Assembly (NCBI GenBank): GCA_031258965.1
Contig: JAIRMC010000033.1
Location: 982 to 64,981 of the forward strand
Origin: Azoarcus sp.
GTDB taxonomy: Bacteria > Pseudomonadota > Gammaproteobacteria > Burkholderiales > Rhodocyclaceae
Length of the DNA: 64,000 nucleotides
Direction of reading: 5' to 3'
Shown here piece after piece: positions 26,961-44,767 of this stretch. Position 1 is the first letter of the stretch. Every line of letters begins with the position of its first letter. A program made the position numbers and the translations under genes. The notes under the pieces were generated by a model. That model made no database searches. It saw only the letters and a list, made by a program, of their open reading frames with translations, and had not been told where the DNA came from.

Positions 26961-29900
26961 GAAGGCCAGCGCCGCCCGCACACCGGCATCGCCCAGCCGG
27001 TGCAAGGCATTGTTGGCCCAGACCACATCGGCCTGGTGTAATTCCTCATACGGAACATCAATGTGCCAACGCCGCGCCTCGGCACACGCATACCGTTGCA
27101 GATTCGCCGTGGCGCGCAACGCCATCTCTGGCGATTCATCCCACGCGATATATTCCACCCGCACGCCATCCAGACGCCGCAAAAGCTGTTGCGCGGCCAG
27201 GCCGCTGCGAGCGCCCACTTCATGCAGGCGCACCGACCGCCCCAGCGCCTGTTCCAGCGCCCGCACCATGTCGGCCAGCGCCTCGATGGCCGCTGCCGTA
27301 CCGTGCGTGTGCAGCAGCAAATACTCCGGCGTCCAGAATGGATGGTTCAGCAGAGTCTGCGCCGACCGCTCGCCGCGAAGAATCTGCGCGAGCGGCGCGT
27401 GGTGCGTCAGCAGCGCATCCGCGGTCTCCCGCAACGGATGCCCGCTAGGCGGCTGCCAGGGTCGAAGCGGAACGTCGGACACAGGCGCATAGCGTCCGTC
27501 TGGCATATGCTCTAAGAATCCTTCGGCGGATAGATGCTCCAACCATCGACTTATCGACCCGGCCCGGCGATGCTGTGCGCCATACTGGCGAACTGCCTCA
27601 TCCGCCGTAATGTCCGTGGTCAAGTCCACGCCCTGTCGACCCAGATGATCGTGCAGGAAGCCGGCCAGCAACCGCGCCATGTCGATTTCATTATCCGGTT
27701 CGGACTGACTCTCGTCCGGAATCCCATGTGGCGCCAGCGCCGCATAATCATTAGGCAGCGCAGGATCGGCAGGGAGGGCACTGTACAGCGCCGTCCCTTG
27801 CGGCGCCACGAAGGCGGCCAGCGATTTCTCCCGCTCGCCCACCGCGATTGCCACAGCGCTCTTGACGCCAGACACCCGCAACAAAGCCGCCTCGATCTCG
27901 CCCAGCTCGATGCGATAGCCGCCAATCTTGACCTGTGTGTCGCGCCGTCCCAGGAATTCCAGCCGGCCATCCGGCCAGTAGCAGCCCGTGTCCCCGGAGC
28001 GATACCAGCGTTCGCCATCTACCGTCACGAACTGCCGCGCCGTGCGCTCAGGGTCGTTGAAATAGCCCAGCGCCACGCCTTCGCCGCCAATCCACAGTTC
28101 CCCCGGCACCCAGTCCGGGCAATCACGGCCCCGCGCGTCGACCACGCGATACTTTTGCCGTGCCAGCGGATAGCCGTAGGGGATCGAACGCCAGCCTGGC
28201 GGCACATCCTCCACATCATGGATATTGGACCAGATGGAAGCCTCCGTCGCGCCGCCCATCGCCACGAACCGGCCATCCGACCGAAAGCGCCGGTAGCGCG
28301 CTGGCAAATCCAGACCGATCCAGTCGCCTGACAGCATCACCGTCCGCAGCGTGACCGGCGCACGCAGCCCGAGTCCTTCGCTGTAAGTCAATAGCATGTC
28401 GAACAGCGCTGGCACTGTGTTCCACAATGTTACGCCATGCCGTTCCATGGCCTCGCACCACGCGGCGGGGTCGCGCCGCTGGCTTTCATCCACCAGCACC
28501 AATGCGCCGCCCGCCGACAACAAGCCAAAAATGTCGTACACCGACAGATCGAAATGCAACGCCGACAACGCCAGCACCCTGTCACCCGCCGTAACCGCGT
28601 AGCGGCGGTTCAGCTCCGCGCACGTATTCAGCGCGCTCCGGTGGGAAATGACCACGCCTTTCGGCGTACCGGTGGATCCGGATGTGTAAATGATGTATGC
28701 CGACTTACGGGCATCGATCACGCGAGGGGCAGGCAGGGCTTCATATCCGATAGCGTCCCGCCAGTCCAGGAACGTCACGCCGTCCACCATGTCATCCGTG
28801 GAGCCGCCGGCATCGTCGCGGCCCGCCAATACCAGCGCTATGCCCGCACCCCGGTAAATCGTTCGCTGGCGTTCTTGTGGTTGATCCGGCGAAACCGGCA
28901 CATATACCGCGCCCGCGTACAATATCCCCAGCACCGCGACGATCTGCCCGACGCCCTTGGACAGAGTGATCGCCACCCGATCTTCCGGCCGCACGCCCCG
29001 CGCGACCAGCGCCCCGGCGCAGCGCCGCGCCTGTTCCGCCAGTTCGCCATAGGTCAAATGGCGATTGCCGTGAATCAATGCCACCGCATCCGGACACTCG
29101 CGCGCCTGGCGCCAGAACTTTTCATGCAGCAACCCCTCGGGGGCTGGCGCGTCGTCATAGGCGTTGATCCGCGCCCTCACGGCATACTGTGCCCGTGGCA
29201 TCAGATCCGGCGCGTCTTCACGCCAGGCTTGCGGCCGATCCATCAGATGCCTTACCTGACGCACATAGGCATGGAACATGGCATCCAGCAGCCCCGGCGG
29301 GAACAGCGCATCGTTACAGTCCCACTGCAAGAACACCGAAGCGCCATGCTCGTAGGCCAGATGATCTATCCAGACCTGCGGCGTCTGCGAAATCCCCCAG
29401 CCCGGCACACCCAATGTGCGCTCCACGTCCCGGCCAAACAACGGGCGGCCCAGATTGCTGGTGAATACCACCGGTGCGCCATGTGGATAAGCGCCCGGCG
29501 TCTTGCGCAACTCGCGCAGCCATTCCACGCCCGACCAGTGCCTGTGCTCGTAGGCTTCCGCGAAAGTTTGCTGATTGGCCTGCGCCAGCGCGCCGAAACG
29601 CGCGCCTTCGCCCGCAATGTCCAGCAGCAGGATGTTGGTGAAGTCGGCAATCATGTTTTTCACCGCGGCATGCAGCGGCTGACGGTCGAACAGGGTCAGG
29701 TTCAACAGCAACCGGGGCTGGCCGCACCAGCGCGACAGCACCGCGCCAAAGCAAGTGGCCAGCGCCATTGTCGGCGTCACGCCGTACTCTCCCGCGCATG
29801 TCCTGAAGCGCGTCCAGTCCTCGGCCTGGATTTCCACGCGCCTGCGTGAGATGCATACCTGCTTGATTTGCTCCGGCTCGCATGCCAACGGCAGATGCGG

Positions 29901-30842
29901 CGTATCGGGCAAACTGTCCCGGCGCGCCATCCAGAACTGTCGCGCCCGCTGCCGGGACGTCTCGTTTTCCTGTGCGGCCTGGGCCAGATAGCTCCTGAAA
30001 TCGTAACCCGCGTCCACCGCCGGCAGGCGTTCGCCGCGCGCCAATGCAGCCAATTCATCAAACATCAGGCTGAAGCTCGCGGCATCCAGTACCAGCAGGT
30101 CGATGTTTACGTGCAGCCTGTTGCGGCCATTGGGCAACAGCGTGAGTTGGAAATCAAAGTTCTCGCCTCGCTCAACGGCCAGCACACGGTGGCCGTGACG
30201 TTCGCGCATTGCCCGCATGTGCGCCTCGCAATCGTCCGGCAAGGCCGCGCGCATATCGTGAAGCGTCAGTCCGCGCCAGCGGACGCCGGGCCGACATTGC
30301 TGACGACCATCATCTAGGAACGTCACCGTCAGCATCGGATGGCGTTCGATCAAAGCGCCAATAGCCTGCTCCAGCGTATCGGCGTCCAGCCCCGCGCCAT
30401 CGAATTCCTGATACAAATGGCAACCCACGCCGCCCAACGTCTGATGCGGCGCGCGGCCCGCCAGATAAGCATGCTGTACGGGCGTCAGCGCGAACGGCTC
30501 GCCGTTCGCCATAGTCGGCCAGGGAGAAGAAAGGGCCTGTTTCGCAACCAGGTTCGGCGCATCTCGCGCAACCGCCGGATACTCGCGCAATAGACGGCTC
30601 CAGCCCCTCAAAGTGGGTTGCCGGTACAAATCCTGTAGCTTCACCCTGTGGCCACGCTTGCGCAAACGATGCATCCAAGCCATGAACCGCATCGAATCCA
30701 GGCCCAGCGCCAGGAAACTGGCATCGGCATCCAACTGTTGCGCGGGTATCCCGAAATCGGCGGCGACCTCTTCGCGCAATGTCTCATCCACCCATCCCAT
30801 CTCTTCTTCCTTGATCTGCGCCAACTTCGTCATCTGATCCAC
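26931..30842 (-). pseudogene. HMWP2 (Irp2)-like NRPS fragment 1: aryl carrier protein, Cy1, Cys-type adenylation domain, inserted MT-like domain
   Basis: LGLDSMR (ArCP), DLLVLDAASF (Cy), YTSGSTGTPKG, HFDLSVYD, GGATEASIWS, YRSGD and QVKIGGYRIE (A domain). The frame is lost near 26960. The start may be the ATG at 30833. Confidence 0.88.
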
Positions 30843-30845
30843 CCC

Positions 30846-32318
30846 TTAGCGCATTTCCACCGCTAGCTGCCGGTTCAGCGCCAGCACGTCTTCTTCGGAA
30901 AACCGTCCTGCGTAGAACCGCATCTTGGCGTAGGCCTGGAACCATTCCACGCAGGTTCGCAGCAATTCCAGCCGCGCCTGGTAGGCTTGCCGCTCGGCGT
31001 GCAGGGCGTCCGTGTTGGTGCGCTCACCGCCCGCCACGCTCCAGCGCATCGCCTCCACCAACCCGACGCTGTCCGCCACGTTCTGGCGCAGCGTCCGCAC
31101 GCGCTCCTCACTGCTGGCGCAAACGCGGAAATATTTCTCCAGCATCGTCCGCGCGGTCTCGACCGCGTGATCCAGCTCGTGGCGCGCCTGTTCCAGCCGC
31201 TCGCGCGACTGGCGCACCGTGTAATAGCTACCGCCGCCGCTAAACAGCGGCAGCGACGCCGACAAGCCCACCGTGTTGGCTTTGTAGTCGCGCCCCTTGT
31301 TGTTGATAGTGTCCGACGCGACCCGCTCGTGCGCCGCATAGACTGAGACCTTGGCCAGGAACTGCCCCTTCTCGCGCTCGACCGCCAGATCGTTGTACTT
31401 GACGGCCAGGCGCGTCGCCTGCAATTCCGGGTTCTGCCGCAAGGCGTCGCTGAGCAGGCCGTCCAGATCCGCTTCCCCCAACGGAATCCGCGCTTCTTCC
31501 AGATCGATGCCCAGCAACTGCGCCGCTTCCACCGGCTCGCCCACGATCGCGGAGAGTTCCCGCAAGCGGTCGGCCAGTTCGTTCTCCTGCGCCAGCAGTC
31601 CGGAGCGGGTCGCGCCCGCCTGGGTGCGCGTCTCCAGAACGTCGATCCGGGTGCCTTCGCCTTGCGCCATCATCCGCTCGTTGCCGCGCAGCATGTCTTC
31701 ATAGACGCGCAACTGCTGCCGCGCCAACGCCAACGTCTCGCGCGCCAGGACGGCGTTCAGGTAGATGTCGATCATGCCCAACGCCACTTGCTGGGTTTCC
31801 AGCCGGTACTGCACCTCGGCATGTTCGGATTGTGTCCGGCCCATCCGGTAGGCGCTGATGGCGGAATAATCGAACAGCGGCTGTTCGATGCTCACGTCGG
31901 TGCGCCGCCCGGAGAAGGCGTCCTTGACGGTGACGCGCTCTCCCGGCGACCCCGACTGCGTCACTTCCTCCGCCAGCCGCGTGCGGCTGCGCCGGTAATT
32001 GACCGAGGCCCGGGGCAGCAGCCCGGCGCGGGCAATGTCCTTCGCTTCCCGCCCCGCCGCCCGCGCCGCCCGCGCCGCGTGCAGTTCCGGCGCGTTCAGC
32101 AGCATCCGCCGATAAGCCCGCGCCAAATCCAGCGTCCGCGGATGGGATTGCGCCTGCGCCCGCGGCGGCGTCTCCAAGAGGTCGGCCCGCACGGGCGCAA
32201 TCCCGCCGAAGAACAGCGGCAACGCCGCCACCGCAACCGGAAGCCAGCGCCCCGCCCTGCCGGCCCCGCGCAAGCGCCGCCGCATGGCAGCGCATTCTCG
32301 TCTACCGCGCGCCGTCAT
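30846..32318 (-). CDS. Type I secretion outer membrane factor (TolC/HasF/AprF family)
   Basis: Signal-like N-terminus, EQPLFD, NPEL, LSASLPLFSGG and YQARL motifs. ATG abuts the MFP stop (TGAATG) and the gene ends 3 nt before the NRPS start. Confidence 0.92.
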   Translation of the reverse strand: MTARGRRECAAMRRRLRGAGRAGRWLPVAVAALPLFFGGIAPVRADLLETPPRAQAQSHPRTLDLARAYRRMLLNAPELHAARAARAAGREAKDIARAGLLPRASVNYRRSRTRLAEEVTQSGSPGERVTVKDAFSGRRTDVSIEQPLFDYSAISAYRMGRTQSEHAEVQYRLETQQVALGMIDIYLNAVLARETLALARQQLRVYEDMLRGNERMMAQGEGTRIDVLETRTQAGATRSGLLAQENELADRLRELSAIVGEPVEAAQLLGIDLEEARIPLGEADLDGLLSDALRQNPELQATRLAVKYNDLAVEREKGQFLAKVSVYAAHERVASDTINNKGRDYKANTVGLSASLPLFSGGGSYYTVRQSRERLEQARHELDHAVETARTMLEKYFRVCASSEERVRTLRQNVADSVGLVEAMRWSVAGGERTNTDALHAERQAYQARLELLRTCVEWFQAYAKMRFYAGRFSEEDVLALNRQLAVEMR

Positions 32319-33671
32319 TCAGTCCTCCGTCAGCGCCAGCCGGGCGCGGTCGCGCAGCGGCTTGAACAGATAACTCATCAGCGTGCGCTCCCCCGTCTTG
32401 ACGAAGGCCGTCACCGGCATGCCCGGCTGTAACAACAGCCCCGGCAGCGCCTCGCGCCCCCGCAAGTCGTCCACATCGATTTCCACGTGGTAATAAGGCA
32501 TGCCCTGCGGGTCTTCCAGCCGGTCTGCCGAAACCGTCCTCACCGTGCCCGGCAGCCTGGGCGTGGACGCGCGATTGAAGGCCGCGAATTCCAGCTCCAC
32601 CGGCTGCCCGGCATGCACCTTGTCTACCGACTGCACGGCCAACTTGCCTTCCACCCGCAGCGGCTGATCCGACGGTACGATCTCCATCAGCGTCTGCCCG
32701 GCGCTGACCACGCCGCCCTGGGTAAACACCGCCAGCCCGGCCACCACGCCCGCCGACGGCGCCGCGATTTGAGTGTTCGCCACCTCGTATTGGGCGCTGT
32801 CCAGCCTCGAAAGCAAATCCGCCGTGCGCGTGCGCGTTTCCGCCAGCGCTGTGCGCAGCTCCTTCTGGTAATCCTCGCGCTGCCGGGTCAGGCGCAGCCG
32901 GTATTCCCGCACCTGTTCTTGCAGCAAGCCCAAACGGCCTTCGTCATCGGCAATGGAAGCGTCCAATTGCAAGAACTGCCGCTCCGATTCGAACAAGCGG
33001 TTGCGCGCCAACAGTTCGTCATCGGCCAGGGAACGCTGGCCCGCAAGCTGGCGCTCGAAAGTCACGCGCTGCTCGCGCCGCGATTGCAAGATGCGTTGCA
33101 GGCTGTCGCGCTGCTCGCGCGCGCCGCCCAAGGCGGCCTCCATCCCGCCCAGCGTGGCCTGCTGGGCGCTGCGGCGGCTGTCGAACAACTGCTGTTGCGA
33201 CTGGACGATCTCGACCGCCTGCGGGCTGCCCTCGCGCTCGGCCCGCAACAGCCGTTCATCGAAACGGATATGCGCCAGCCCATCGCGCTCGGCCGCCAGA
33301 CGGTTTTCCGCCGCCAAGCTGCTCAAGTACTGGAAGCGCAACGAATCGAGCTGGTTGGCCGCCACCGTCGGCTCCAACTCCACCAGCACCTGGCCTTCCC
33401 GCACCGCCTCGCCCTCGACCGCCAAGATGCGCCGCACCTTGCCGCCCGCGACCGGCTGCACCGCCTTCCGGTTGCCGCTCACCACCACCTTGGCGTCCAC
33501 CGGCACGCCCGCATCCAGCGGCGCCAGCGCCGCCCAGGCCGTGAAGCCCGCCACCCCCGCCAGCACGACCAGCCAGCCCAGGCGCACGTAATGCCCCTCG
33601 TCCACCGACAGCGGATCGCCCCGCGCGCCGCCGTCCAACGACTGCCTATCCAGGCTCAGTTCCGCACCCAT
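32319..33671 (-). CDS. Type I secretion membrane fusion protein (HlyD/HasE/PrtE family)
   Basis: WAALAPLDAGV, GNRKAVQPVAGG, IAAPSAGVV, LQPGMPV and ERTLMSYLFKP motifs. True start at MGAELS; the ORF-track N-terminal extension overlaps the ABC gene. Confidence 0.93.
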   Translation of the reverse strand: MGAELSLDRQSLDGGARGDPLSVDEGHYVRLGWLVVLAGVAGFTAWAALAPLDAGVPVDAKVVVSGNRKAVQPVAGGKVRRILAVEGEAVREGQVLVELEPTVAANQLDSLRFQYLSSLAAENRLAAERDGLAHIRFDERLLRAEREGSPQAVEIVQSQQQLFDSRRSAQQATLGGMEAALGGAREQRDSLQRILQSRREQRVTFERQLAGQRSLADDELLARNRLFESERQFLQLDASIADDEGRLGLLQEQVREYRLRLTRQREDYQKELRTALAETRTRTADLLSRLDSAQYEVANTQIAAPSAGVVAGLAVFTQGGVVSAGQTLMEIVPSDQPLRVEGKLAVQSVDKVHAGQPVELEFAAFNRASTPRLPGTVRTVSADRLEDPQGMPYYHVEIDVDDLRGREALPGLLLQPGMPVTAFVKTGERTLMSYLFKPLRDRARLALTED

Positions 33672-35443
33672 GTTCCCTCCCTGCGCTGCGCAAGATTCAT
33701 TGCCGGCAAGGGCATGATCCGGTTCGGCGGCGGCTGGGGCGCGGCCGCGCGCTGCATGCGTTGCAGCATCTCGGCCAGCGGGCCGAAATCGACCTGCGTC
33801 CCGGCATGGAGCGTCAGCAACTTGTCCGCTTGTTGCAGAATATTGGGCTTGTGCGTAATCACCACCAGCGTAATGCCCGCCTGCTTGACGCGGCCAATGG
33901 CTTGCGCCAGCGCCGCCTCGCCCGCCTCGTCCAGATTGGCGTTGGGTTCGTCCAGCACCACCAGGCACGGCTCGCCGAACAACGCCCGCGCCAGCCCCAC
34001 GCGCTGCCGCTGCCCGCCCGAGAGGCCCATGCCGTTCTCGCCCAGACGGCTCTGGTACCCCTCGGGCAATTGCAGGATCAACTCATGTACCCCCGCCATC
34101 CGCGCGGCGGCGATCACTTTCCGCTCGTCCATCTCGCCGAAGCGGGCGATGTTCTCGGCCACCGTGCCCGCGAACAATTGCACCTCCTGCGGCAGATAGC
34201 CGACCAGTGCGCCGAGCGCCCCAGGCCGCCATTGATCCAGCGGCGCGCCGTCGAGCCGCACCTTGCCGCGCAACGGCGGCCAAGCATTGACCAGGCAGCG
34301 CGCCAGCGTAGTCTTGCCCGCGCCCGAAGGGCCGATCACCGCCAGCGTCTCGCCCGCGTCCAGCCGGAAGTCGATGCCGTGCAACACCGGCTGGGTCTGG
34401 CTGGGCGGGGCGGCCAGCAACTGCTCCACCGCCAGCGCGCCGCTAGGCCGGGGGAAATCCATGCCCTGGGCCAACGGCGGAAAATCCGCCAGCAGCAGGC
34501 TCAGGCGGCGTTCCGCCTCCTTCACGTTCGTCCATTGGCGCAAGGCGCTGATCACCTGGTCGATGGGGGCCAGCGCCCGGCCCAGCAGAATGGAACCGGC
34601 GATCATCATGCCCGCCGTCATCTCGTGGCGCAGCGTCAGCCAAGCGCCCAGCCCCAGCGTGAGCGACTGCACCGCCAGGCGCAGCGCCTTGTTCCCGCCC
34701 TGGATTTTCGCCATGCGGGCGCTGGCCAGGTTCTGCTCGCGCACATAGGCCAAATGCTGCCCGGCCCAGCGTTGGCGCAGGCTGCCCAGCATGCCCATGG
34801 CCGCGATGGCCTCGGCATTGCGCAGGTTGGCGCTGGCATCGCGGCGCGAGGCGATGGCAAGCTCCCCCGCCTTTTGCAGATGCGGGCGGCTCACCCGCTC
34901 GTTGAACCAGCCCACGCCCATCAGCAGCAGCGTACCGCCCAGGGCGAACCAACCCAGCAGCGGATGAAAATAAAACATCACGAGCAGATAGACCGGAAAC
35001 CATGGCGCGTCGAACAGCGCGAACAGCGCGCTCCCCGTGGCGAACTGGCGCAATTGCTGCAAATCCTCCAACGGCTGGGCGGCGTTCAACTGGCCTGTCT
35101 TGAGGTTCGCGCTGAAAGCGGCGTCGAACACCCTCGGCGCCAGCCTGCGGTCGAACCCCGTGCTCAAGCGCAGCAACACCAGGCTGCGCACCCACTCCAG
35201 CCCGCCCAGGAAGACATACAACATCAGCAGGATGAGCGTGAGCATCAGCAGCGTCATTTCGTTGCCGGAAGCCAGCACGCGGTCGTAGACCTGCAACATG
35301 TAGAGCGCCGGGGCGAGCATCAGCAAGTTGACGACGCCCGAGAACACGCCGATGTGCGCGAAACCGCGCTTGTAGGCCAGCAGGGCGCGGGCCAGCTCGC
35401 CGCGCGCGTCCCCCGCCGGACGGGGTTCATCCATCGTCGCCAC
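33656..35443 (-). CDS. Type I secretion ABC transporter (PrtD/HasD/AprD family)
   Basis: NLLMLAPALYMLQVYDRVL family signature, LFDAPWFP, Walker A GPSGAGKT, LSGGQRQR and LDEPNANLD; no C39 peptidase domain. Confidence 0.95.
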   Translation of the reverse strand: MATMDEPRPAGDARGELARALLAYKRGFAHIGVFSGVVNLLMLAPALYMLQVYDRVLASGNEMTLLMLTLILLMLYVFLGGLEWVRSLVLLRLSTGFDRRLAPRVFDAAFSANLKTGQLNAAQPLEDLQQLRQFATGSALFALFDAPWFPVYLLVMFYFHPLLGWFALGGTLLLMGVGWFNERVSRPHLQKAGELAIASRRDASANLRNAEAIAAMGMLGSLRQRWAGQHLAYVREQNLASARMAKIQGGNKALRLAVQSLTLGLGAWLTLRHEMTAGMMIAGSILLGRALAPIDQVISALRQWTNVKEAERRLSLLLADFPPLAQGMDFPRPSGALAVEQLLAAPPSQTQPVLHGIDFRLDAGETLAVIGPSGAGKTTLARCLVNAWPPLRGKVRLDGAPLDQWRPGALGALVGYLPQEVQLFAGTVAENIARFGEMDERKVIAAARMAGVHELILQLPEGYQSRLGENGMGLSGGQRQRVGLARALFGEPCLVVLDEPNANLDEAGEAALAQAIGRVKQAGITLVVITHKPNILQQADKLLTLHAGTQVDFGPLAEMLQRMQRAAAPQPPPNRIMPLPAMNLAQRREGTWVRN

Positions 35444-35664
35444 TTTTCCAGCCCTCCACGGAAAAAACCTTTCACCCCCCGCTTGGGCGGGGAATGTGGA
35501 AAACCCGCATTTGCGGGCGCTTCCGGGAGTCGCTAGAATGCGCGGCTTCCGGAAAGGGGGGACTGGCGTGAAGCCATGCCAGCCCCGGGAAAATCCGGTC
35601 GAAGCGGCGATCTCTCTTGCCAGGAAACACCGCCTCGCCGGATGAACTGCTTATTTCTGGAACG

Positions 35665-35696
35665 CCAGCGTCATGCTGATTCCAGAATGACGCTGG
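35665..35696. other. 10-bp perfect stem-loop just downstream of the HasA-like gene
   Basis: CCAGCGTCAT-N12-ATGACGCTGG, starting 3 nt past the stop codon; no U-tract on the coding strand. Confidence 0.6.
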
Positions 35697-35699
35697 TTG

Positions 35700-36527
35700 T
35701 CACGCTGCCAGCAGATCGTTGCAACCGCAATCGCAGCAAGGGCAGCAAGCGATGACACCGTCTGCGACATAATCACCGGCCTCGTTGTAGTAAGTGATCG
35801 ACACGCCAGTACCAACCAACGCGGCATTGATGCTCGCCCAAGGGTCAGTAATATCGGAACCACGCGATTCCAGATACTTGTCCAGCACGAACTCGAAGGC
35901 TTGGACGGTGGTGTTGTCGAACGCCAACCCGTAAAGCACGGCGGAGTTCAGCGTGGCTGCGGCATAGATGCCCGCATTCGCCAGGATGCTGTTACCGTTA
36001 TCGTCTACCAGCAACGAAGCAGCGATGGCGCTATTGCCGTCGGTCACGCTGAACTCGCTGACCGCCACCGCATCCACCGCGATGTTGAAGCCAGTGACTA
36101 CCAGCAGGGACTCATAAGCGTCGAACGTCGCCAGGGTTGCGCACTTCGGGGACGGGTTATAGTCGCCGACCGGCGTGTAACCGAGATACAGGGTATCCAG
36201 ATCGCCGGTGGTCACGAACGTATACAACTCAGCTACATTGTCGTAGGTCGTATCCCAAGAAAATCCTTCGGCAGAATTCACCAGGAACTTCCCACCGCCA
36301 TTTCCAGGCGTGACGTGATCCACCCCTTGGCCCGCATACCAGTTGAAATCATAGATTTCATAGGTGGGCGGCGTTGCAGTGGGATCGTAGATGCCGCTAC
36401 CGGAGTGATAGCCGCAATCCTCAACGCCAGCCGCCCAAATGGAGCCGATGTAGTCCGAGTTATAAGCGTTGATCTCGGTTTGGTCGTAAATACCCCGCCA
36501 CGCGGTGGTATCAGTTTGCAAAGACAT
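35700..36527 (-). CDS. Divergent HasA (hemophore)-like secreted protein, 275 aa, with a Cys-rich tail; probable T1SS substrate
   Basis: No signal peptide; acidic and rich in Gly/Thr/Tyr. GDLDTLYLG and VLYGLAF resemble HasA GQLDSLSFG and VVYGLMSG. C-terminal DLLAA resembles the HasA ELLAA export motif. Strong AGGAG RBS; lies between receptor and T1SS genes as in has operons. Confidence 0.7.
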   Translation of the reverse strand: MSLQTDTTAWRGIYDQTEINAYNSDYIGSIWAAGVEDCGYHSGSGIYDPTATPPTYEIYDFNWYAGQGVDHVTPGNGGGKFLVNSAEGFSWDTTYDNVAELYTFVTTGDLDTLYLGYTPVGDYNPSPKCATLATFDAYESLLVVTGFNIAVDAVAVSEFSVTDGNSAIAASLLVDDNGNSILANAGIYAAATLNSAVLYGLAFDNTTVQAFEFVLDKYLESRGSDITDPWASINAALVGTGVSITYYNEAGDYVADGVIACCPCCDCGCNDLLAA

Positions 36528-36606
36528 GACGTCTTCTCCTTGTTACGAGCCGGACGCCACTCCGGCCAATAGTTGCTCCAACCCCCATGGCTGAAGCGGC
36601 AAAAAC

Positions 36607-39486
36607 TCAGAACCGGTATTCCAGACTGGCCGTAAAGGTACGACCCGGATAGAAGTTGTAACCGAACGTGGTTGGCGTGGCCTCCATCTGGTCGGTGAGG
36701 TTGGCCAGATAGACGCCAATTTTCAACTGATCGTTGAATCGGTAATTGGCGAACAAATCCAGCTTGATGACCCGGGGCCAGAGCTTGGCGACAAGAAAAT
36801 CGTCCTCGTCCGGCAACGAATCTAAAGAACTATTGGCGGCATTGTTGCCAGACTGATATTTCGGGACATACCAATAAGAGGCGCGCTGCCTGCCGCGATA
36901 ATGTACGGTACCGCCCATCTCCAGTCTTCCTGCATAGGGCGTCAGCGCGGCGGTCAGGCTGGCGCGGACAGGCTCGATCAGACTGGTTTCCATCCAGTTC
37001 CAGCCGGAATAGCATATCTTCTGGCCCTTGCCTATCGATGTTGTAGTGGTAGTGCCATCGGCTGTGGTTGAGGTATAAGCCCCGCCGGGCGCCTGCCAAC
37101 TGCACATCTTGTTGTCGTGGCGCAGCGGCACGGTCAGATTGCCGCGCACATAAAACAGCGGCTGGCGATAGGCTAGGTTCAACTCGAAGCCCTGGCGGAT
37201 CACCGGTTCCAGATTATTGACATTGGCGACACTGCCATGACTCTCCACTACGCCATCGGCCAGAATGATGGGGCCGTAAGCAATGTAATTACGGATGCGG
37301 TTGCGGTAGAAATTGATGCCCAGATCAAATTGATCATTCCGCGCCAGCCAGTTCTCGCGTTTGTAATTCAGGCCAAGCTGGAAAGACAGGTTTTTTTCCG
37401 GCTCCAGATCAGGATTGGCAAAGAAAGTTTGTCTCATCCATGCGCCGTTGATGTACATTTCGTTGCTGGTGGGCGCTCTTTCATCATAGGCGACACTGCC
37501 ATAGACGCTCGCACCGCTGCCCGGATGAGTGTATTGCAACGCGAAATTGGCCGATTTCAGATCGTAGCGGTGCTTCTGGTCGTCGAAAATCCAGCGTGTA
37601 TTACCACTATTGGGGTCGATATAAAAGTCATGGGAGTGTTCGGCTGCCATCTCCTGGGCCTTTACCCTGATTGTAGTGGATGAAGAACACCATGCATGTT
37701 TGGGCTCCGGCATCTGCAAGCATTCCGCTCTCAAAATCTCACGATAATGTGCCCAACTATATACACTGCCCTCTCCGGAGATATTCCCGGTTCTGTACCT
37801 CGGCGAAAGGATGTCCATCGACACGCGCTGCCAGCCAATACCCACGCTGGCCTGCCAGGGGGCATTGCCCTCGGTGCTCAACGCCAGCGCCAAGCCCATG
37901 GTGTCGCTGCGGGAGTTCGGGTCCCATTCCATTTTTGTATACGACAACCCTTGATCTGCCAGATGTTGCTGATACCATTCCTCCTCGGTCAGGCTATCGA
38001 CATCTTTCTTGGCACGCCGTAATTCCAGCCCGGCATCCAGGCGCAAAGGGCCGATTGCTGGCACATCGAAATGACTGGCGTTGGCGAGTTTCAAGCCGCT
38101 GGAACCATTCTCGACGTCATAATGCAGATCCTCTCCCATGGCGTAAGATCCCGGTATGCCTGTCCAGCCTTGTTTGCGCGTCTGCTTTTCGTGATAGAGC
38201 TGTACTTCCGGGTTGAGCCATTTTGAAAAGGCCGCCTTGTATTTCAGGCTGATTACCTGGCTATCAAGTTCCGTTCTGACATTCCATCTGTGCTTACCCC
38301 AGTAAGCATTCCCGCCATCCGCTGGCACCCATATCGACGGCTCCTGATCGGTCTGGAAGCGGGCGCGGCTGGCCGTGGCGAAAAATTCCAGGCTCTGCTC
38401 GTAAGCGTCGTTGAAGTAATGGCGCAGACGCAGCATCTGGGATTCGTTTTTCTTCTCCGTGCCCACCAGAGGGGATTTGCTGGCATCTTTCAGCCATTTC
38501 AACTGCTCCGCGGTGAACTGACAATTGTTGAAACCATCCTGAAATCCTCTTGAAGCGCCTAATATCCCCAGATAACGGCAATTACTTTGCTCTTGTTGCT
38601 GTGTTTTACCATCGTTTAAGAAATAATTAATCTTCCGTGAATGGGCATCGCGTAACATTTCCTTGCTGTTCATATTACTGCCAATACGGTAAGGATCATT
38701 TTCACTGCTGGCTGCTCCCAGCATGAAATCCCATCTCTCGGAGCGCCCTCCCACAAAGACCGAGCCGGAAGGTTTGTGCCCGTTCGCGTATTTACTGAAG
38801 CCAGTGGAAAGGCGGATCATGCCGCCCAGGTTCTTGCCGGGGCGCAGGACGTCATCCAGGTCGAGATACCGGAAGTTGACCGAACTGCCCAGGCTGCCCA
38901 AGACGCCTGTCCCGGTACTCGTTCCTCTTGTGACATCAATGTTTCTCAAAAACTGCGGATCGATGAGCAAGGAGCCGGTTTGTCCAATGTCTTTTGTAAA
39001 GGCGTGGAAATTCTGCGTAATCCCTTCCAGTTGCTGCGACACCCGCCCATGCCCGGCGATGCCCTGCACGCCGACGGACACTTCCGGGCGGGCATAGAGG
39101 CTGTTCATGGATGTGCCGGAAATCTGGTCGATCACGTCGCTCATGTGGCTGGCGTTGCGCCGCTCGATGTCTTCCTTGCTCGCCCCGCTGGCGTTGCCGA
39201 TGGCTTTCTTTTTTTCTTCTTCCGCCGCGCCGCTCACTTCCACGCCTTCAAGGATCGTCTCATCGCCAGAGGCCGCTTCATCGACGGCGGCTGGCCGCGA
39301 GGCGTTTTCTTGTTCCACCGCCGCCGGAACTTCCTGCGCCAGCGCCTGCTGCCCGCCCAGTATCAGGGCCACCGCAAGCCACGAACCCGCCCGGCCAAAG
39401 CGCGCGTTTCCCGCCTTCCGGGCGCTTTCCGTTGCTGAAAAAGAACATGCCCTTGCCCATCGCCAACCCCCATCTTTCCCGAACAT
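36607..39486 (-). CDS. TonB-dependent outer membrane receptor, HasR/heme-receptor-like
   Basis: Signal peptide ending QQALA, TonB box ETILEGVEV, plug GRV...QNF...IDP, ERAP...NPDLEPE (FRAP/NPNL-like) and C-terminal Phe (LEYRF). Start at MFGKDG after a GAGG RBS. Confidence 0.92.
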   Translation of the reverse strand: MFGKDGGWRWARACSFSATESARKAGNARFGRAGSWLAVALILGGQQALAQEVPAAVEQENASRPAAVDEAASGDETILEGVEVSGAAEEEKKKAIGNASGASKEDIERRNASHMSDVIDQISGTSMNSLYARPEVSVGVQGIAGHGRVSQQLEGITQNFHAFTKDIGQTGSLLIDPQFLRNIDVTRGTSTGTGVLGSLGSSVNFRYLDLDDVLRPGKNLGGMIRLSTGFSKYANGHKPSGSVFVGGRSERWDFMLGAASSENDPYRIGSNMNSKEMLRDAHSRKINYFLNDGKTQQQEQSNCRYLGILGASRGFQDGFNNCQFTAEQLKWLKDASKSPLVGTEKKNESQMLRLRHYFNDAYEQSLEFFATASRARFQTDQEPSIWVPADGGNAYWGKHRWNVRTELDSQVISLKYKAAFSKWLNPEVQLYHEKQTRKQGWTGIPGSYAMGEDLHYDVENGSSGLKLANASHFDVPAIGPLRLDAGLELRRAKKDVDSLTEEEWYQQHLADQGLSYTKMEWDPNSRSDTMGLALALSTEGNAPWQASVGIGWQRVSMDILSPRYRTGNISGEGSVYSWAHYREILRAECLQMPEPKHAWCSSSTTIRVKAQEMAAEHSHDFYIDPNSGNTRWIFDDQKHRYDLKSANFALQYTHPGSGASVYGSVAYDERAPTSNEMYINGAWMRQTFFANPDLEPEKNLSFQLGLNYKRENWLARNDQFDLGINFYRNRIRNYIAYGPIILADGVVESHGSVANVNNLEPVIRQGFELNLAYRQPLFYVRGNLTVPLRHDNKMCSWQAPGGAYTSTTADGTTTTTSIGKGQKICYSGWNWMETSLIEPVRASLTAALTPYAGRLEMGGTVHYRGRQRASYWYVPKYQSGNNAANSSLDSLPDEDDFLVAKLWPRVIKLDLFANYRFNDQLKIGVYLANLTDQMEATPTTFGYNFYPGRTFTASLEYRF

Positions 39487-39741
39487 CAGTTTGACCTCAT
39501 CCATGAGTACGAACGTAAATGCCAATGAGAGGCAATTACCTGATTGAACAAAACCCCTACCCCGATGGCTGCGATAGATCAATGTCAGCCGATGGCAAGC
39601 TTGACGGAAATTTGTCAACCTCGCTAACGGTTTCCGGGAAAAACTTGACTATTCGGGAATTTTTATTTCAGTATTGGCAATATCACGAGTCATCGCCGCC
39701 GAAGGCGCGGCGGCGGGCTTGGAACGGTGCAATGAGCCGCT

Positions 39742-41544
39742 TCACGAAATCGCGGTCTTCCACGGGCTTTCTTCTTCTTGTCTGCCCGCGCGCCAAGCCT
39801 TGACGCTTTGTTGCGCGCGCCACATGCGCGCATAGCGGCCCGCGCGCGCCAGCAGCTCGGCGTGCCGGCCCGCTTCGACAATCCGTCCGCCATCGATGAC
39901 TAGTATCTGGTCGGCGGCGGCGATGGTGGACAGCCGGTGCGCGATGACGATTACCGTGCGATCACGCACCAGCGCGTCGATGGCCGCCTGCACGGCGACT
40001 TCGCTTTCGCTGTCCAGCGCGGCGGTCGGCTCGTCCAGGATCACAATGGGCGCATTCTTGAGCATGGCGCGGGCGATGCTGATGCGTTGACGCTCGCCGC
40101 CCGACAGACGAGCGCCGATGTCGCCGGCGCGGGTCTGGTATCCCTCGGGCAGGCGAGCGATGAACTCATGACAATGGGCAGCGCGCGCGGCGGCTTCTAT
40201 TTCTTCATCCGTTGCTTCGGGACAGGCCATGCGGATGTTGGCGAGGATGCTGTCGTCGAACAGGTATACGTCCTGGAACACCACGGAGATCAACGCATCG
40301 AGCCGTTCGGCGGGTATGGCGCGTACATCCACGCCGCCGATGGTGACGCGCCCGGCCTGCGGGTCGGCATGGCGCATCAGTAAACGCGCCGCCGTGGTCT
40401 TGCCCGACCCCGAAGGCCCCACCAGCGCGGTCAGGCTGCGCGCGGGCAGCTTGGCGCACAAATCATGCAGCGTGGGTTCGCCGGCCCTGGCATAGCGGAA
40501 GCTCACGCCCTCGAAGGCCACATCGAAAGCCTGCGGCGCCTGGATCGGCGTCTGGCGCGGCAAGGGGGCAATGACCAACATGGCGTTGATCTTGCCCAAC
40601 GCCGCTTCGATCGAGTCGATGACTTTGGTGTACAGCACGAAGCAACCCAGCGGTTCGCCAAAACGCACTGCGATCACCATCAACGCGGCCAGGACGGCAA
40701 TGTCCAGCGTGCCCCGCACGACAAACAGGGCGCCCGCGAACACGACTAGCAGGATCGCCAGCTCCATCACCGTGGCCAGCGCCAGATTGGGCTTGGCCCC
40801 CTTTTTCTGGCCGATGGTCTGGACGGTTTCCAGATGCTTGAAACCCGCTTGCAGTTTCATGGCCTGCTCGCCGACACAACAGGCGGCGCGCAACACCGGC
40901 AGGCCCTGGGTGTATTCCAGGATGTCGCTGGCGGTGCGTTCGTTGGCATCAGCCAGCATGCGCATGCCGCGCCCAAACGCGGGACGACGCCAGCGGTACA
41001 GCGGAATCAGCAGCGGGAACGCCAGCAACAGGATCAGGCCCATGCGCCAATCAAAGTACAGCGCCGCCAAGGCCGCCGCCACGGGTGTTATCAAGGCGGT
41101 AGCCATCATGTTGGCGATGGTCAGGATATAGCTCAGCGTTTCGTCCACGTTGCCCAGCAGCGTCGCGTTGACGCCGCCCGCGCGCTTGTCCTGTAGCACT
41201 TCCAGCGGAATGCGGCGCAACTGCTCGCCAAGTTCGGTGCGCAGTTCGTGCGTGTTGTGCACCATGTCGCCCCGGTAATCGAACCCCTGCGCCCACCAGC
41301 GGATGGCCGTGCTCGCCAGCATCATCGCCGTCATCGCCAGCAGCCAGGGCAGCGCGGCGCGCCCATCCGGCGCCGGAATCCGCGCCTGGAACAGCGGTAT
41401 CAGGCAGGCCAGCGCTAAACCCTGCACGGCGGCTGCCACGGCCAGGCCAGCCAGGCTGGCGCGCAGCCGGGGCGCGCGGCCGCGCGCGATCTTCATCAAC
41501 CGATGCCAGGTCTCGCGCAGCGGGGTAATGCGTGTTTCGTTCAT
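39742..41544 (-). CDS. Siderophore import ABC half-transporter (YbtQ/IrtB-like)
   Basis: Fused TMD and NBD, GPSGSGKT, LSGGERQR and LDEPTAALD; paired with a second half-transporter. Confidence 0.9.
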   Translation of the reverse strand: MNETRITPLRETWHRLMKIARGRAPRLRASLAGLAVAAAVQGLALACLIPLFQARIPAPDGRAALPWLLAMTAMMLASTAIRWWAQGFDYRGDMVHNTHELRTELGEQLRRIPLEVLQDKRAGGVNATLLGNVDETLSYILTIANMMATALITPVAAALAALYFDWRMGLILLLAFPLLIPLYRWRRPAFGRGMRMLADANERTASDILEYTQGLPVLRAACCVGEQAMKLQAGFKHLETVQTIGQKKGAKPNLALATVMELAILLVVFAGALFVVRGTLDIAVLAALMVIAVRFGEPLGCFVLYTKVIDSIEAALGKINAMLVIAPLPRQTPIQAPQAFDVAFEGVSFRYARAGEPTLHDLCAKLPARSLTALVGPSGSGKTTAARLLMRHADPQAGRVTIGGVDVRAIPAERLDALISVVFQDVYLFDDSILANIRMACPEATDEEIEAAARAAHCHEFIARLPEGYQTRAGDIGARLSGGERQRISIARAMLKNAPIVILDEPTAALDSESEVAVQAAIDALVRDRTVIVIAHRLSTIAAADQILVIDGGRIVEAGRHAELLARAGRYARMWRAQQSVKAWRAGRQEEESPWKTAIS

Positions 41545-43310
41545 GCTCGCTCTCCGGCCAAGGCCCAGTTTCGCGCCTGCTCAAAGTTGCGCCACAACCG
41601 GGCGTAGACGCCGCCTTGCGCCACCAGCGCATCGTGGCGGCCTTGCTCGGCGAGTCGCCCCTGGTCGAACACCAGAATCTGATCGGCGTCACTGACGGTG
41701 GACAGCCGGTGCGCCACCATTAGCACGGTCTTGCCGCGCATCAGGTTGGAGAGCGCCGCCACCAGTGCGGCCTCGTTCTCCGGGTCGGCAAAGGCCGTGG
41801 CTTCGTCCAGCACCAGGATGGGCCGGTTTTGCAAGATCGCGCGGGCGATGGTGATGCGCTGGCGCTGACCGCCGGAAAGAAACACGCCGCGCTCGCCCGC
41901 GGGCGTGTCGTAGCCTTGCGGCAGCGCCATGATGAAGTCGTGCGCCTGGGCTGCGCGGGCGGCGGCAATGACCTCGTCCATCGTTGCCCCTGGCGCGCCC
42001 AGGCGGATGTTGTTGGCAATGGTATCGGCAAACAGGAAGGTGTCCTGGAACACAAAGGCTACCTGCCGCATCAGCGTCTCGGGCGGCATTTCCCGCACGT
42101 CCACGCCGCCAATCCGGATGCGGCCCGCGCTCGCGTCCCAGAAACGCGGAATCAGCCGCGCCACTGTGGTCTTGCCCGCGCCGGAAGGGCCAACCAGCGC
42201 CGTCACGCCGCCTCGCGGCGCCTCGAAGCTCACGTCCCGCAATACCCATGGCCCATCGTCCGTGTAGCGGAAATCCACGTGCTCGAAGCAGACATTGGCA
42301 TCCAGCGGTTCTTTGCCCTGCGTCGCGTCCGGCGCTGACAGTGGCGGCTCGGCCATCACCTCGTGAATACGGTGAATGCTCATTTGTGTCTTGGCTACCA
42401 AATGCCTGAGCGACATCAGCGGCAATAGGGATTCGGCCATGCCCGTACCCACCAGCAGCGCCGCCAGCCAGGTGGCGGCGTCCAGCGCGTCGCGGTCGAT
42501 CAGCCAGCCGCCAAGCCACACCAGCGCGGCCAGCGTCGGCAGCGGGCTGAGAATGGCGACCGACATGCGCGACGAAAAGCCCGCCATGCGATACCACTGC
42601 AATACGACTTCCACGAATGCATCGAGCGCGCGCTGGTAGCGTTGGAAGGTGCTCGCGCCGGTATCGAAGGTGCGCACTACGGGCATGGCCTGTACATACT
42701 CCACCACCGCCTTGCTGACGTTCTCGCTGGCGGCGTTGTAGCGCGATGCCATCTCGCCTGCGCCGCGCATGCCCAGCGACACCACCGCCATGCCCGCCGC
42801 CAGCACCGCCGTCGCGGCCAGCGCCAGACGCCAGTCCAGCAAGCACAGCAGCGCGAAGGTCAGCACTGGGGAGACGTAGGCGCGCGCATACAACGGCGTG
42901 CTGTCGGCCACGAATATGTGCAGCGCCTTCACGTCGTCCATCATCACTTTGGAGAGCGCTCCGGAACCTGTCTGCTGCACATAGCCTAGCGGCAGGCGCG
43001 CCAGATGCCCGGCAAGATCGGTGCGCAACCGCGTCTCCAGGCGAAAAGCCGCGTAATGTGACTGATTGAATCCGGCCAGCCGCAGCACATGGGCCAGCAT
43101 CGTCAGCACCACGGCCAACACGAGGGAAAACCACGGCCATTGCCCCGGCAACGCAAGCAGGGCATGCATCGCCCATGCCAGCGCGCACAATGCCCCCAGC
43201 GTGACCGCGCTCGCCAGCGCCGCCAGCAGCATGGCAAAGCGAATCTGGCCACGCACGGGCCGCATGATGTCCCAAACGCTAGGCGCACAGCCCGCTCCAT
43301 TACCGCGCAT
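41541..43310 (-). CDS. Siderophore import ABC half-transporter (YbtP-like)
   Basis: SHYAAFRLE, FVADSTP, GPSGAGKT, LSGGQRQR and LDEATAFAD. Start placed at MRGNGA. Confidence 0.9.
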   Translation of the reverse strand: MRGNGAGCAPSVWDIMRPVRGQIRFAMLLAALASAVTLGALCALAWAMHALLALPGQWPWFSLVLAVVLTMLAHVLRLAGFNQSHYAAFRLETRLRTDLAGHLARLPLGYVQQTGSGALSKVMMDDVKALHIFVADSTPLYARAYVSPVLTFALLCLLDWRLALAATAVLAAGMAVVSLGMRGAGEMASRYNAASENVSKAVVEYVQAMPVVRTFDTGASTFQRYQRALDAFVEVVLQWYRMAGFSSRMSVAILSPLPTLAALVWLGGWLIDRDALDAATWLAALLVGTGMAESLLPLMSLRHLVAKTQMSIHRIHEVMAEPPLSAPDATQGKEPLDANVCFEHVDFRYTDDGPWVLRDVSFEAPRGGVTALVGPSGAGKTTVARLIPRFWDASAGRIRIGGVDVREMPPETLMRQVAFVFQDTFLFADTIANNIRLGAPGATMDEVIAAARAAQAHDFIMALPQGYDTPAGERGVFLSGGQRQRITIARAILQNRPILVLDEATAFADPENEAALVAALSNLMRGKTVLMVAHRLSTVSDADQILVFDQGRLAEQGRHDALVAQGGVYARLWRNFEQARNWALAGERA

Positions 43311-44577: not shown

Positions 44578-44653
44578 GGGCAAGAACGCTCCAAGGCTTG
44601 GCAACGGCCCGGAGTCATGAATTGTTTGCGGGTAAACCACAAGATGGCGCCAA

Positions 44654-44672
44654 TATTGCTGCATCAGCAATA
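44654..44672. promoter_or_regulatory. 8-bp perfect inverted repeat in the divergent promoter
   Basis: TATTGCTG-CAT-CAGCAATA between the MFS and araC starts; binding partner unknown. Confidence 0.45.
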
Positions 44673-44691
44673 ATCTGAACACAACAACAAC

Positions 44692-44710
44692 GAGCATCAT
44701 TATCATTACA
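44692..44710. promoter_or_regulatory. Fur box
   Basis: Minus strand TGTAATGATAATGATGCTC matches 14/19 to GATAATGATAATCATTATC, in the divergent promoter of an iron-uptake cluster. Confidence 0.8.
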
Positions 44711-44767
44711 ATAAGAAAGGGGCGCTAACGGTTTACGGAAAAAATTTGACGTTTTCAGGAAAAAATT

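Follow-up and report, generated by a model that had tools for sequence, protein, structure and literature searches.

A has-like receptor and secretion module conserved in yersiniabactin-type siderophore loci, and a possible role for its secreted protein as a siderophore carrier

Why should a siderophore locus encode a secreted protein together with a secretion system and a large outer-membrane receptor? Uptake of siderophores by Gram-negative bacteria is usually described as direct binding of the metal chelate to its receptor. Shuttling by secreted proteins has been described for heme and, more recently, for bare metals. The question is raised by a 64,000-nucleotide stretch of Azoarcus sp. DNA (contig JAIRMC010000033.1, positions 982 to 64,981), called the window here. 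In it, a yersiniabactin-type locus with nonribosomal peptide synthetase (NRPS) and polyketide synthase (PKS) genes contains a unit laid out like a hemophore (has) operon: an AraC-family regulator, a TonB-dependent receptor (TBDR), a 275-aa protein (p275) and a type I secretion system (T1SS). The initial annotation of this DNA proposed that the 275-aa protein captures the metal-loaded siderophore and delivers it to the receptor.

Our analysis gives good support to a module that is real, conserved, mobile and functionally tied to yersiniabactin-type systems. That p275 is a secreted carrier delivering a yersiniabactin-type metal complex to its own receptor is the reading we favor, but we hold it tentatively, at somewhat short of an even chance. 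A full-text search of the literature found no description of the module.

A has-like module in yersiniabactin-type loci

The open reading frame (ORF) list of the window and Pfam and NCBIfam profile searches of its proteins confirmed the co-oriented array that had been described. It runs on the minus strand from a major facilitator superfamily (MFS) gene and two ATP-binding cassette (ABC) genes through the receptor, the 275-aa protein, the T1SS ABC protein, membrane-fusion protein (MFP) and outer-membrane factor (OMF) to the NRPS, the PKS and a phosphopantetheinyl transferase (PPTase). Its regulatory, transport and secretion genes are the following.

44768-45754, plus strand: AraC-family regulator, divergent from the array (Pfam HTH_18/HTH_AraC)
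43300-44706, minus strand, probable true start near 44577: YbtX-like MFS transporter, RhtX/FptX-like (TIGR02718, E 1.5e-43; 44% identity to E. coli YbtX)
41541-43340, minus strand: YbtP-like half of the inner-membrane importer, a half-size ABC protein of exporter fold (ABC_membrane and ABC_tran; 58% identity to E. coli YbtP)
39742-41544, minus strand: YbtQ-like half of the inner-membrane importer, also half-size and of exporter fold (ABC_membrane and ABC_tran; 50% identity to E. coli YbtQ)
36607-39486, minus strand: TBDR of 959 aa, distantly HasR-like (best PDB match HasR 3CSL)
35700-36527, minus strand: p275, an acidic 29-kDa protein of 275 aa from an undescribed family, the presumed T1SS substrate (no Pfam, NCBIfam or PDB sequence match)
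33656-35443, minus strand: T1SS ABC protein of PrtD/HasD type (TIGR01842, 723 bits against a curated cut-off of 510)
32319-33968, minus strand, likely start near 33671 and overlapping the ABC stop: T1SS MFP, an HlyD adaptor (TIGR01843, 377 bits, cut-off 209)
30846-32318, minus strand: T1SS OMF of TolC type (TIGR01844, 244 bits, cut-off 225; Pfam OEP)

The order of receptor, secreted protein, ABC protein, MFP and OMF is therefore has-like, as had been noted, and the reported 3-nt gap between the OMF and NRPS genes is correct (the OMF stop codon lies at 30846-30848 and the first NRPS start at 30842). The flanks of the array are housekeeping genes. The absence of heme-system genes also held up. 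There is no ECF (extracytoplasmic function) sigma gene, scored as sigma-70 region-2, on the window's contig, and no TonB, heme ABC transporter or heme oxygenase gene among the flanking ORFs of at least 200 aa, smaller ORFs not having been scanned exhaustively. The whole genome gave no match to the heme oxygenase model PF01126 or the HasA model PF06438.

The p275 family comprises about 45 clusters at 90% identity, always beside this receptor and T1SS, and 12 species-level loci among 185,579 species. The order AraC-TBDR-p275-ABC-MFP-OMF was conserved in all 12 loci and in further contigs, and in at least eight lineages the module lies inside or beside a yersiniabactin-type cluster. The link to such clusters that was first seen in the window is thus real and conserved.

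Three contexts were found. In the first, the module sits in a complete cluster, with YbtX, YbtP, YbtQ and FyuA transcribed one way and AraC, TBDR, p275, T1SS, HMWP2, HMWP1, YbtU, YbtT, a YbtE::YbtS fusion and the PPTase the other. The hosts are Pollutimonas, Comamonas sp., Pseudothauera, Pseudomonas sp. FME51 and several metagenome contigs, so that a search for the same order with intact NRPS/PKS genes was answered positively. HMWP2 follows the OMF gene in all of these, with ExbB-ExbD-TonB between them in FME51, and in an assembly labelled Salmonella; HMWP1 in the intact relatives is a 3,250-aa protein. Pollutimonas and Pseudothauera carry the full yersiniabactin-type set (HMWP2 and HMWP1 in order, YbtU, YbtT, YbtE, YbtS, YbtPQ, YbtX and FyuA), of which the window keeps only YbtX, YbtP, YbtQ and broken HMWP2 and HMWP1. 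The second context is uptake-only, with YbtX-P-Q and no NRPS, in Kerstersia gyiorum, a JGI contig and Comamonas kerstersii, where the module is rearranged. In the third, found in Erwinia and Pantoea, the module lies by itself at the queG locus. On one Vibrio-labelled contig, it is convergent to an Irp3/PKS cluster.

Across these contexts, YbtX-P-Q are the most constant neighbors. They are divergent from AraC even beside the most divergent p275 member (38% identity), and they adjoin the module also in copies without any NRPS. No heme ABC, HemS or heme oxygenase gene was found beside the module in any of the approximately 25 contexts listed.

Among known systems, the surrounding cluster is closest to the ybt genes on the high-pathogenicity island of Yersinia and E. 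coli (ybtS-X-Q-P, ybtA, irp2, irp1, ybtU-T-E, fyuA). The window has orthologs of YbtP, YbtQ and YbtX, at the identities listed above, and of HMWP2 (53%) and HMWP1 (51-59%). The intact relatives add YbtU (50%), YbtT (48%), YbtE (59%), YbtS (41%) and FyuA (40%). In both systems, divergent transporter and biosynthesis operons flank an AraC gene. They differ in that the module places five genes (receptor, p275 and the three T1SS genes) between the promoter and irp2, its regulator is no YbtA ortholog, its transport genes run X-P-Q-FyuA, and it includes a YbtE-YbtS fusion and the PPTase. In the window, biosynthesis is pseudogenized and FyuA is lost as well.

A mobile has-like island could also have landed in a siderophore cluster with no functional connection to it. 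The module is indeed mobile and patchy: p275 was absent from 40 relatives of the window genome, 21 of them of the same genus, which indicates that the locus was acquired horizontally, and at the queG site of Erwinia the module stands alone. p275 had no match on plasmids. Chance neighborhood is nevertheless highly improbable, since the linkage recurs in Burkholderiales, Pseudomonas and the Vibrio-labelled contig in more than one arrangement, and since both promoters of the locus share one regulatory box, as described below. The stand-alone modules are linked at the level of the genome, too. A FyuA-type receptor is encoded elsewhere in all five such genomes (Erwinia, Pantoea and one Enterobacterales metagenome-assembled genome), compared to 3 of 149 other genomes of the family sample (Fisher p = 8e-8, phylogeny not corrected for). 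In Erwinia V71, that receptor belongs to a full thiazoline NRPS/PKS cluster on another contig, which has its own AraC gene.

The receptor and p275 genes stand out in composition. Their GC content is 55-56%, compared to 66-68% for the adjoining T1SS and YbtPQ genes, and a dip of 3-17 points was seen at this pair in every relative checked (our loci L002-L043). The pair also diverges faster (38-66% identity) than the T1SS ABC protein or YbtP/Q (77-85%). This could be due to the amino-acid composition of the two proteins or to exchange of both genes together as a cassette.

The receptor, its secretion system and p275

The closest characterized relatives of the receptor are heme receptors. Its best PDB sequence match is HasR (3CSL, E 2e-29), followed by PhuR, and neither FyuA nor FptA is among its matches. 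Its best NCBIfam model is TIGR01785 (TonB-hemin), at 207 bits and below the cut-off of 317, and it shares 24-28% identity with canonical HasR proteins. The T1SS points the same way: it is a complete system of the PrtD/HasD class beside the presumed substrate gene, and its ABC protein is 52-57% identical to canonical HasD but only 42-44% identical to that of the genome's other T1SS. These likenesses, together with the gene order of hasR-hasA-hasD-hasE-hasF in Serratia marcescens and Pseudomonas, make up much of the case for the main rival to a siderophore carrier. This rival holds that p275 is a divergent hemophore that binds heme or another tetrapyrrole and passes it to a HasR-derived receptor. 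The module would merely share its regulation with the siderophore genes, and the cell would draw on two iron sources at once.

Eight module receptors were aligned with four canonical HasR proteins from hasA-bearing genomes. All four HasR proteins have the N-terminal signaling (STN) domain, and none of the eight module receptors does. Heme in HasR is coordinated by His189 on plug apex C and His603 on loop L7 (PMC6981324). At the plug apex, where HasR reads G(H/Y)GQRNG, the module receptors read DIGQTGS, with Ile in place of the His or Tyr. The segment from the RAP box to the NPxL box, in which His603 sits, contains no conserved His or Tyr in these receptors. Both heme-ligand positions thus lack His and Tyr, whereas in all four canonical HasR proteins they are filled by His or Tyr. 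Nor does the module have the HasI/HasS ECF sigma/anti-sigma pair that goes with the signaling domain of a HasR-type receptor. Elsewhere in the genome, ECF-sigma genes stand beside other TBDRs (C111:6956-7159 with C111:9172; C131:8145 with C131:10653 in our contig numbering). One of these receptors is 929 aa long, and the 2.7-Mb genome has about a dozen receptors in all. The module receptors are 930-1,000 aa long with long Cys-containing loop insertions, and this size and these insertions would fit a receptor on which a protein docks. An AlphaFold2 model of the receptor from eight sequences had a mean pLDDT of 45.7, too poor to use.

p275 has the features expected of a HasA-type export substrate. 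It is acidic (pI 4.05), has 20 Tyr, and has neither a Sec signal nor an N-terminal hydrophobic stretch nor GGxGxD/RTX repeats. Its last residues are NDLLAA, compared to a family consensus of DLLLAA and to (D/E)LLAA in canonical HasA proteins taken from genomes. Two further features lie near the 3' end of its gene and beyond it.

35721-35747, minus strand: Cys-rich stretch CCPCCDCGC directly before the p275 export signal (from the translation)
35473-35496, minus strand: strong hairpin followed by a T-run between the p275 and T1SS ABC genes, a terminator-like site

Stable hairpins (-19 to -29 kcal/mol) are present in the p275-ABC intergenic region of nine relatives, and a hairpin after the substrate gene is another likeness to the Has system. 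It may act as an attenuator or as an mRNA-stabilizing element that sets the ratio of substrate to transporter.

The initial annotation called the 275-aa protein HasA-like. This holds for its gene position and export tail, but homology was not borne out. HMMER searches with p275 (phmmer and profile) against Pfam, NCBIfam and PDB sequences gave no match and no HasA chain, and none of 32 aligned family members matched PF06438 even at E<=10. An AlphaFold2 model of p275 was of high quality (pLDDT 91.7, predicted template modeling score 0.90), and Foldseek found no match to it at E<=0.001 in a PDB library that includes HasA structures (best E 0.56). The only positive signal came from hhalign and was unstable. 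Against a profile of six HasA sequences the probability was 0.5%, against one of 26 it was 68% (E 5e-5), with the column setting -M first it was 30%, and once the C-terminal export tails were removed it fell to 0.8%. As no sequence or Foldseek match was found and the hhalign signal is unstable, HasA homology is not established. By sequence comparison, p275 resembles HasA in position and export signal only.

The putative ligand sites can be compared as well. The heme ligands of HasA are His32 and Tyr75, with His83 as a partner (PMC6981324). The p275 family has no invariant His. In the weak hhalign alignment, p275 Tyr102 pairs with Tyr75, His83 falls in a gap and the region of His32 is unaligned. 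Tyr102 is kept in 27 of the 32 members, and position 41 is always His or Tyr, which the hemophore reading can claim for itself, as it can the ability of the module to stand alone and the FyuA of intact clusters, which already serves the siderophore.

Overall, the module resembles the Has system in its gene order, in its T1SS, in an acidic substrate that ends in D-LL(L)AA and in a receptor of more than 900 aa whose nearest solved relative is HasR. It differs in its substrate, which is about 90 residues longer than HasA and without a counterpart of His32 or His83, in its receptor, in an AraC regulator with its own 35-bp box in place of HasI/HasS, and in its neighbors, which are YbtPQX and NRPS/PKS genes and never heme utilization genes. 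With the has-like architecture, the HasD and HasR affinities and the FyuA of intact clusters as its main supports, and with the ligand residues, the regulator and the near-constant YbtPQX neighbors on the other side, we consider the hemophore reading unlikely, though it is the strongest of the rivals.

What p275 could bind is hinted at by conservation in the family, in which many aromatic residues are invariant but no His or Cys is. From the sequences, this pattern points to an aromatic or hydrophobic ligand more than to a bare metal ion. A second rival is that p275 is itself a proteinaceous metallophore, which binds Fe3+, Zn2+ or Cu or strips metal from host or environmental carriers before delivery to the receptor. 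Secreted effectors that bind metal and dock on TBDRs are reported to work in this way. The many invariant Tyr and Asp/Glu residues could form a ferric site, the window's subclade has the CxC tail, and genes of metal homeostasis (a Fur-family gene, a CDF transporter, PCuAC/SCO1) stand beside some clusters. But the Cys-rich linker before the export signal is confined to the closest relatives (P0002-P0005, P0023 and P0045 of our p275 set) and absent from most of the family, and the lack of any invariant His or Cys makes bare-metal binding a less likely family role. Characterized YbtPQ homologs import metal-siderophore complexes. A metallophore would leave the constant linkage to YbtPQ unexplained, and we regard it as distinctly unlikely. 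The CCPCCDCGC stretch, which lies between the folded part and the export signal, may be a lineage-specific soft-metal or disulfide feature.

Regulation and the decay of biosynthesis

The regulator was described as a divergent YbtA/PchR-like AraC protein. The gene is divergent and its helix-turn-helix (HTH) domain is YbtA/PchR-like, but it is not a YbtA ortholog: identity to E. coli YbtA is 36% over 107 aa and covers the HTH domain only. The N-terminal domain has no recognizable relative, and PDB sequence matches cover only the HTH. Since the match is confined to this domain, the regulator belongs to the module and has replaced YbtA. Its orthologs are 42-71% identical and stand beside the receptor at every locus examined except four, three of which have a truncated gene and one none. 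In the Comamonas kerstersii-like genomes (L011, L012, L024), AraC is truncated to about 100-140 residues, YbtX-P-Q-FyuA lie on another contig, and there is no NRPS/PKS. The regulatory sites in the window are as follows.

44724-44758, minus strand: 35-bp bipartite AraC box in the divergent promoter between AraC and YbtX-P-Q, CTGAAAACGTCAAATTTTTTCCGTAAACCGTTAGC
44692-44710, minus strand: Fur-box-like sequence TGTAATGATAATGATGCTC, matching 14 of 19 Fur consensus positions
39623-39657, minus strand: second 35-bp AraC box, 5' of the receptor operon, CCCGAATAGTCAAGTTTTTCCCGGAAACCGTTAGC

The consensus of the 35-bp box is C(C/T)nnAAnAnnCAAnTTTTnnCnGnAAnnCG(T/G)TAGC. Of the loci scanned, only the Vibrio-labelled contig, which has no AraC gene, lacks it upstream of the receptor; the stand-alone modules of Erwinia and Pantoea have it there as well. 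The same box precedes the YbtX/MFS gene in every locus with YbtX-P-Q. No locus has it before the HMWP2/NRPS gene, so the biosynthetic genes would appear to be transcribed from the receptor promoter. The box (..CCGTTAGC) resembles the E. coli repeats (..CGGGTAGC) only loosely, it had no match in E. coli genomes, and it is absent from the separate thiazoline cluster of Erwinia V71.

A Fur box had also been proposed upstream of the array. A search with the exact Fur consensus gave no match within 3 mismatches, but direct scoring found the Fur-like site listed above, and its score of 14 is reached by only 1 of 300 random 255-nt windows. Fur-like boxes follow the AraC box in several relatives, and the one in Erwinia V71 scores 16 of 19. 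A scan for sigma-70 promoters gave no matches.

The biosynthetic genes of the window were mapped by tblastn with the intact HMWP2 and HMWP1 of Pollutimonas.

24602-30842, minus strand: HMWP2-like NRPS, PCP-Cy-A(MT)-PCP-Cy-PCP, with one frameshift (53% identity to E. coli Irp2)
17505-24605 as an ORF, 17535-24605 as the remnant, minus strand: HMWP1-like PKS/NRPS, KS-AT-MT-KR-ACP-Cy (tblastn segments of the intact Pollutimonas HMWP1)
16835-17581, minus strand: PPTase, the last gene of the cluster (Pfam 4PPT_N and ACPS; 59% identity to the PPTase of the Pollutimonas cluster)

The decay hinted at in the initial annotation was borne out. HMWP2 has one frameshift near 26961, with residues 7-1296 in frame -3 and 1297-2091 in frame -1. 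HMWP1 has a frameshift near 21995 and a deletion of about 119 codons with a change of frame near 19955; its segments cover residues 1-874, 879-1556 and 1676-2492 of 3263, so that it ends at residue 2492 and the C-terminal MT-PCP-TE is gone. The deletion, of roughly 7 kb, extends to the PPTase and has also removed ybtU, ybtT and the ybtE::ybtS fusion, and no ortholog of YbtU or YbtE/S was found anywhere in the genome. All nine regulatory, transport and secretion genes are intact. Assembly error was considered as the source of the frameshifts and is unlikely, because the nine upstream genes are intact and a clean deletion joins the HMWP1 remnant to the PPTase; the three frame breaks and both deletions all fall in biosynthetic genes. 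The biosynthetic half of the cluster is dead.

FyuA is missing, too. The statement that the only receptor is HasR-like, with no FyuA- or FptA-like protein, is true of the window, whose genome has no FyuA ortholog, and of Kerstersia. It does not extend to the intact clusters, in which an unmistakable FyuA ortholog directly follows YbtQ (PDB 4EPA, E 1e-151). Kerstersia gyiorum and the window genome show the same pattern, with YbtX-P-Q, AraC, receptor, p275 and T1SS intact and FyuA and biosynthesis gone. With biosynthesis dead, FyuA absent and the nine other genes intact, the window copy would serve only for piracy, that is, uptake of a siderophore made by other cells. One rearrangement is peculiar to it. 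The AraC/YbtX-P-Q block (39742-45754) is inverted compared to all relatives (L003-L006, L026, L039), and as a result the importer genes now run into the receptor operon. The Hsp33 gene (45906-46790) now abuts AraC.

These uptake-only copies bear on a third rival, in which p275 is not an import shuttle at all. It would instead help to release or solubilize a hydrophobic siderophore, or p275 and the receptor would act mainly as a sensor that feeds the AraC regulator. No exporter of yersiniabactin-type siderophores is known, and HasR in Pseudomonas acts mainly as a sensor. Such roles would also suit a module whose own regulator has taken over the whole cluster and an intact cluster that keeps FyuA as its bulk receptor. 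The retention of the module in genomes without biosynthesis argues against an export role, however, and the receptor has no signaling domain. We therefore consider this rival improbable.

A possible carrier route

We favor the siderophore carrier for five reasons. The constant partners of the module are YbtPQX and not heme utilization genes. One box is common to both promoters. The receptor lacks the heme ligands and the signaling domain of HasR. The regulator is of the siderophore-responsive AraC type. Lastly, the window genome and Kerstersia have lost FyuA and biosynthesis, and what they have kept is precisely the set of uptake genes. The carrier proposal of the initial annotation thus gains comparative support from the conserved link to yersiniabactin-type clusters and from YbtX-P-Q as the most constant neighbors, while the HasA homology on which it drew is unsupported and the intact clusters proved to have FyuA.

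The module would then be a self-contained uptake unit (AraC, TBDR, p275 and HasDEF-like T1SS) under Fur and AraC control, wired into a yersiniabactin-type cluster. Under iron limitation, the regulator would activate two promoters with the same 35-bp box. One would drive YbtX-YbtP-YbtQ, with FyuA in intact clusters, and the other the receptor, p275 and the T1SS followed by the biosynthetic genes. Its C-terminal DLLAA signal would direct p275, still unfolded, through the T1SS, and outside the cell the protein would bind the metal-loaded aryl-thiazoline siderophore. It would next dock on the large receptor and hand the complex over for TonB-driven import, and YbtPQ and YbtX would move the complex across the inner membrane. 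Of this picture, the genes present, the common boxes, the conserved linkage and the loss of biosynthesis can be read from the sequences; secretion, the ligand, docking and the route through the inner membrane are inferred.

Several points weigh against this route. The closest characterized relatives of both the receptor and the T1SS are heme systems. A heme-type site in p275 is possible, given the invariable His or Tyr at position 41 and the pairing of Tyr102 with HasA Tyr75. The FyuA ortholog of the intact clusters makes a second outer-membrane route not obviously needed. Erwinia and Pantoea have no YbtPQ genes beside the module, and the sensor domain of the regulator is unrelated to that of YbtA.

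A fuller version of the carrier proposal, to which we give slightly less credence, is that p275 defines a new family of siderophore carriers secreted by a T1SS, and perhaps a new fold as well. These would deliver the yersiniabactin-type Fe/Cu/Zn complex to a hemophore-receptor-like TBDR, in parallel to the FyuA route or in its place in cheater genomes, and the module's AraC protein would control the whole siderophore regulon.

Related concepts have been described. Bacteroides xenosiderophore lipoproteins (PMC13142918) and Slam-dependent HphA hemophores (bioRxiv 10.1101/2023.03.29.534853) are surface or extracellular proteins that pass a nutrient to a TBDR, and metal-binding effectors of type VI secretion systems, such as the Fe(II)-binding effector of Yersinia pseudotuberculosis (PMC13079257), follow the same capture-and-delivery principle. 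As far as the available parts of these sources describe them, they differ from the module in export (lipoprotein export, Slam or type VI secretion compared to a T1SS here) and in their unrelated protein families, and none is encoded inside an NRPS/PKS siderophore operon.

If the carrier reading is true, a protein shuttle encoded inside such an operon would add a step to the model of siderophore uptake. Its consequences would extend to the recovery of hydrophobic thiazoline siderophores, to selectivity among Fe, Cu and Zn, and to cheating and piracy within microbial communities. Were the ligand heme after all, the module would still be new in three respects: its hemophores would form a family with no sequence relationship to HasA, its HasR-like receptor would lack the canonical histidines, and its AraC regulator would stand in for YbtA as well as for HasI/HasS. 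The question can be tested directly, since the system is present in type strains that can be cultured, namely Pollutimonas bauzanensis CGMCC 1.10190, Pseudothauera nasutitermitis CC-YHH838 and Kerstersia gyiorum DSM 16618, the last being naturally uptake-only.

Some minor features of the relatives were also recorded. The YbtE::YbtS fusion, which joins a salicyl-AMP ligase to a salicylate synthase, is about 1,150 aa long in Pollutimonas (L013 4102-7620, minus strand) and Pseudothauera (L014 4804-8166, minus strand). Pseudomonas sp. FME51 has a Fur-family gene between YbtQ and the FyuA-like receptor (L039 157-654), and a dedicated ExbB-ExbD-TonB set between the T1SS and HMWP2 (L039 16006-18214). 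A Fur-family fragment was seen in L026, and a cation diffusion facilitator (CDF) transporter stands beside YbtQ in L041. A small SAM-dependent methyltransferase gene, which may tailor the siderophore, lies between AraC and the receptor in L023/L025 (5816-6571) and after FyuA in Pollutimonas (L029 2233-2985).

Other genes interrupt the module or its surroundings. A DUF3368/UPF0175 toxin-antitoxin-like pair separates the T1SS ABC and MFP genes in L025 (12895-13734) and L041 (12917-13756). In Pseudothauera (L031 2577-6102), an anti-phage IteA/IteS-like pair occupies the DNA between the YbtX-P-Q-FyuA operon and the receptor operon. At the most divergent locus (L043 5431-7083), a 550-aa PKD-repeat protein is encoded by the first gene after the AraC box, ahead of the receptor.

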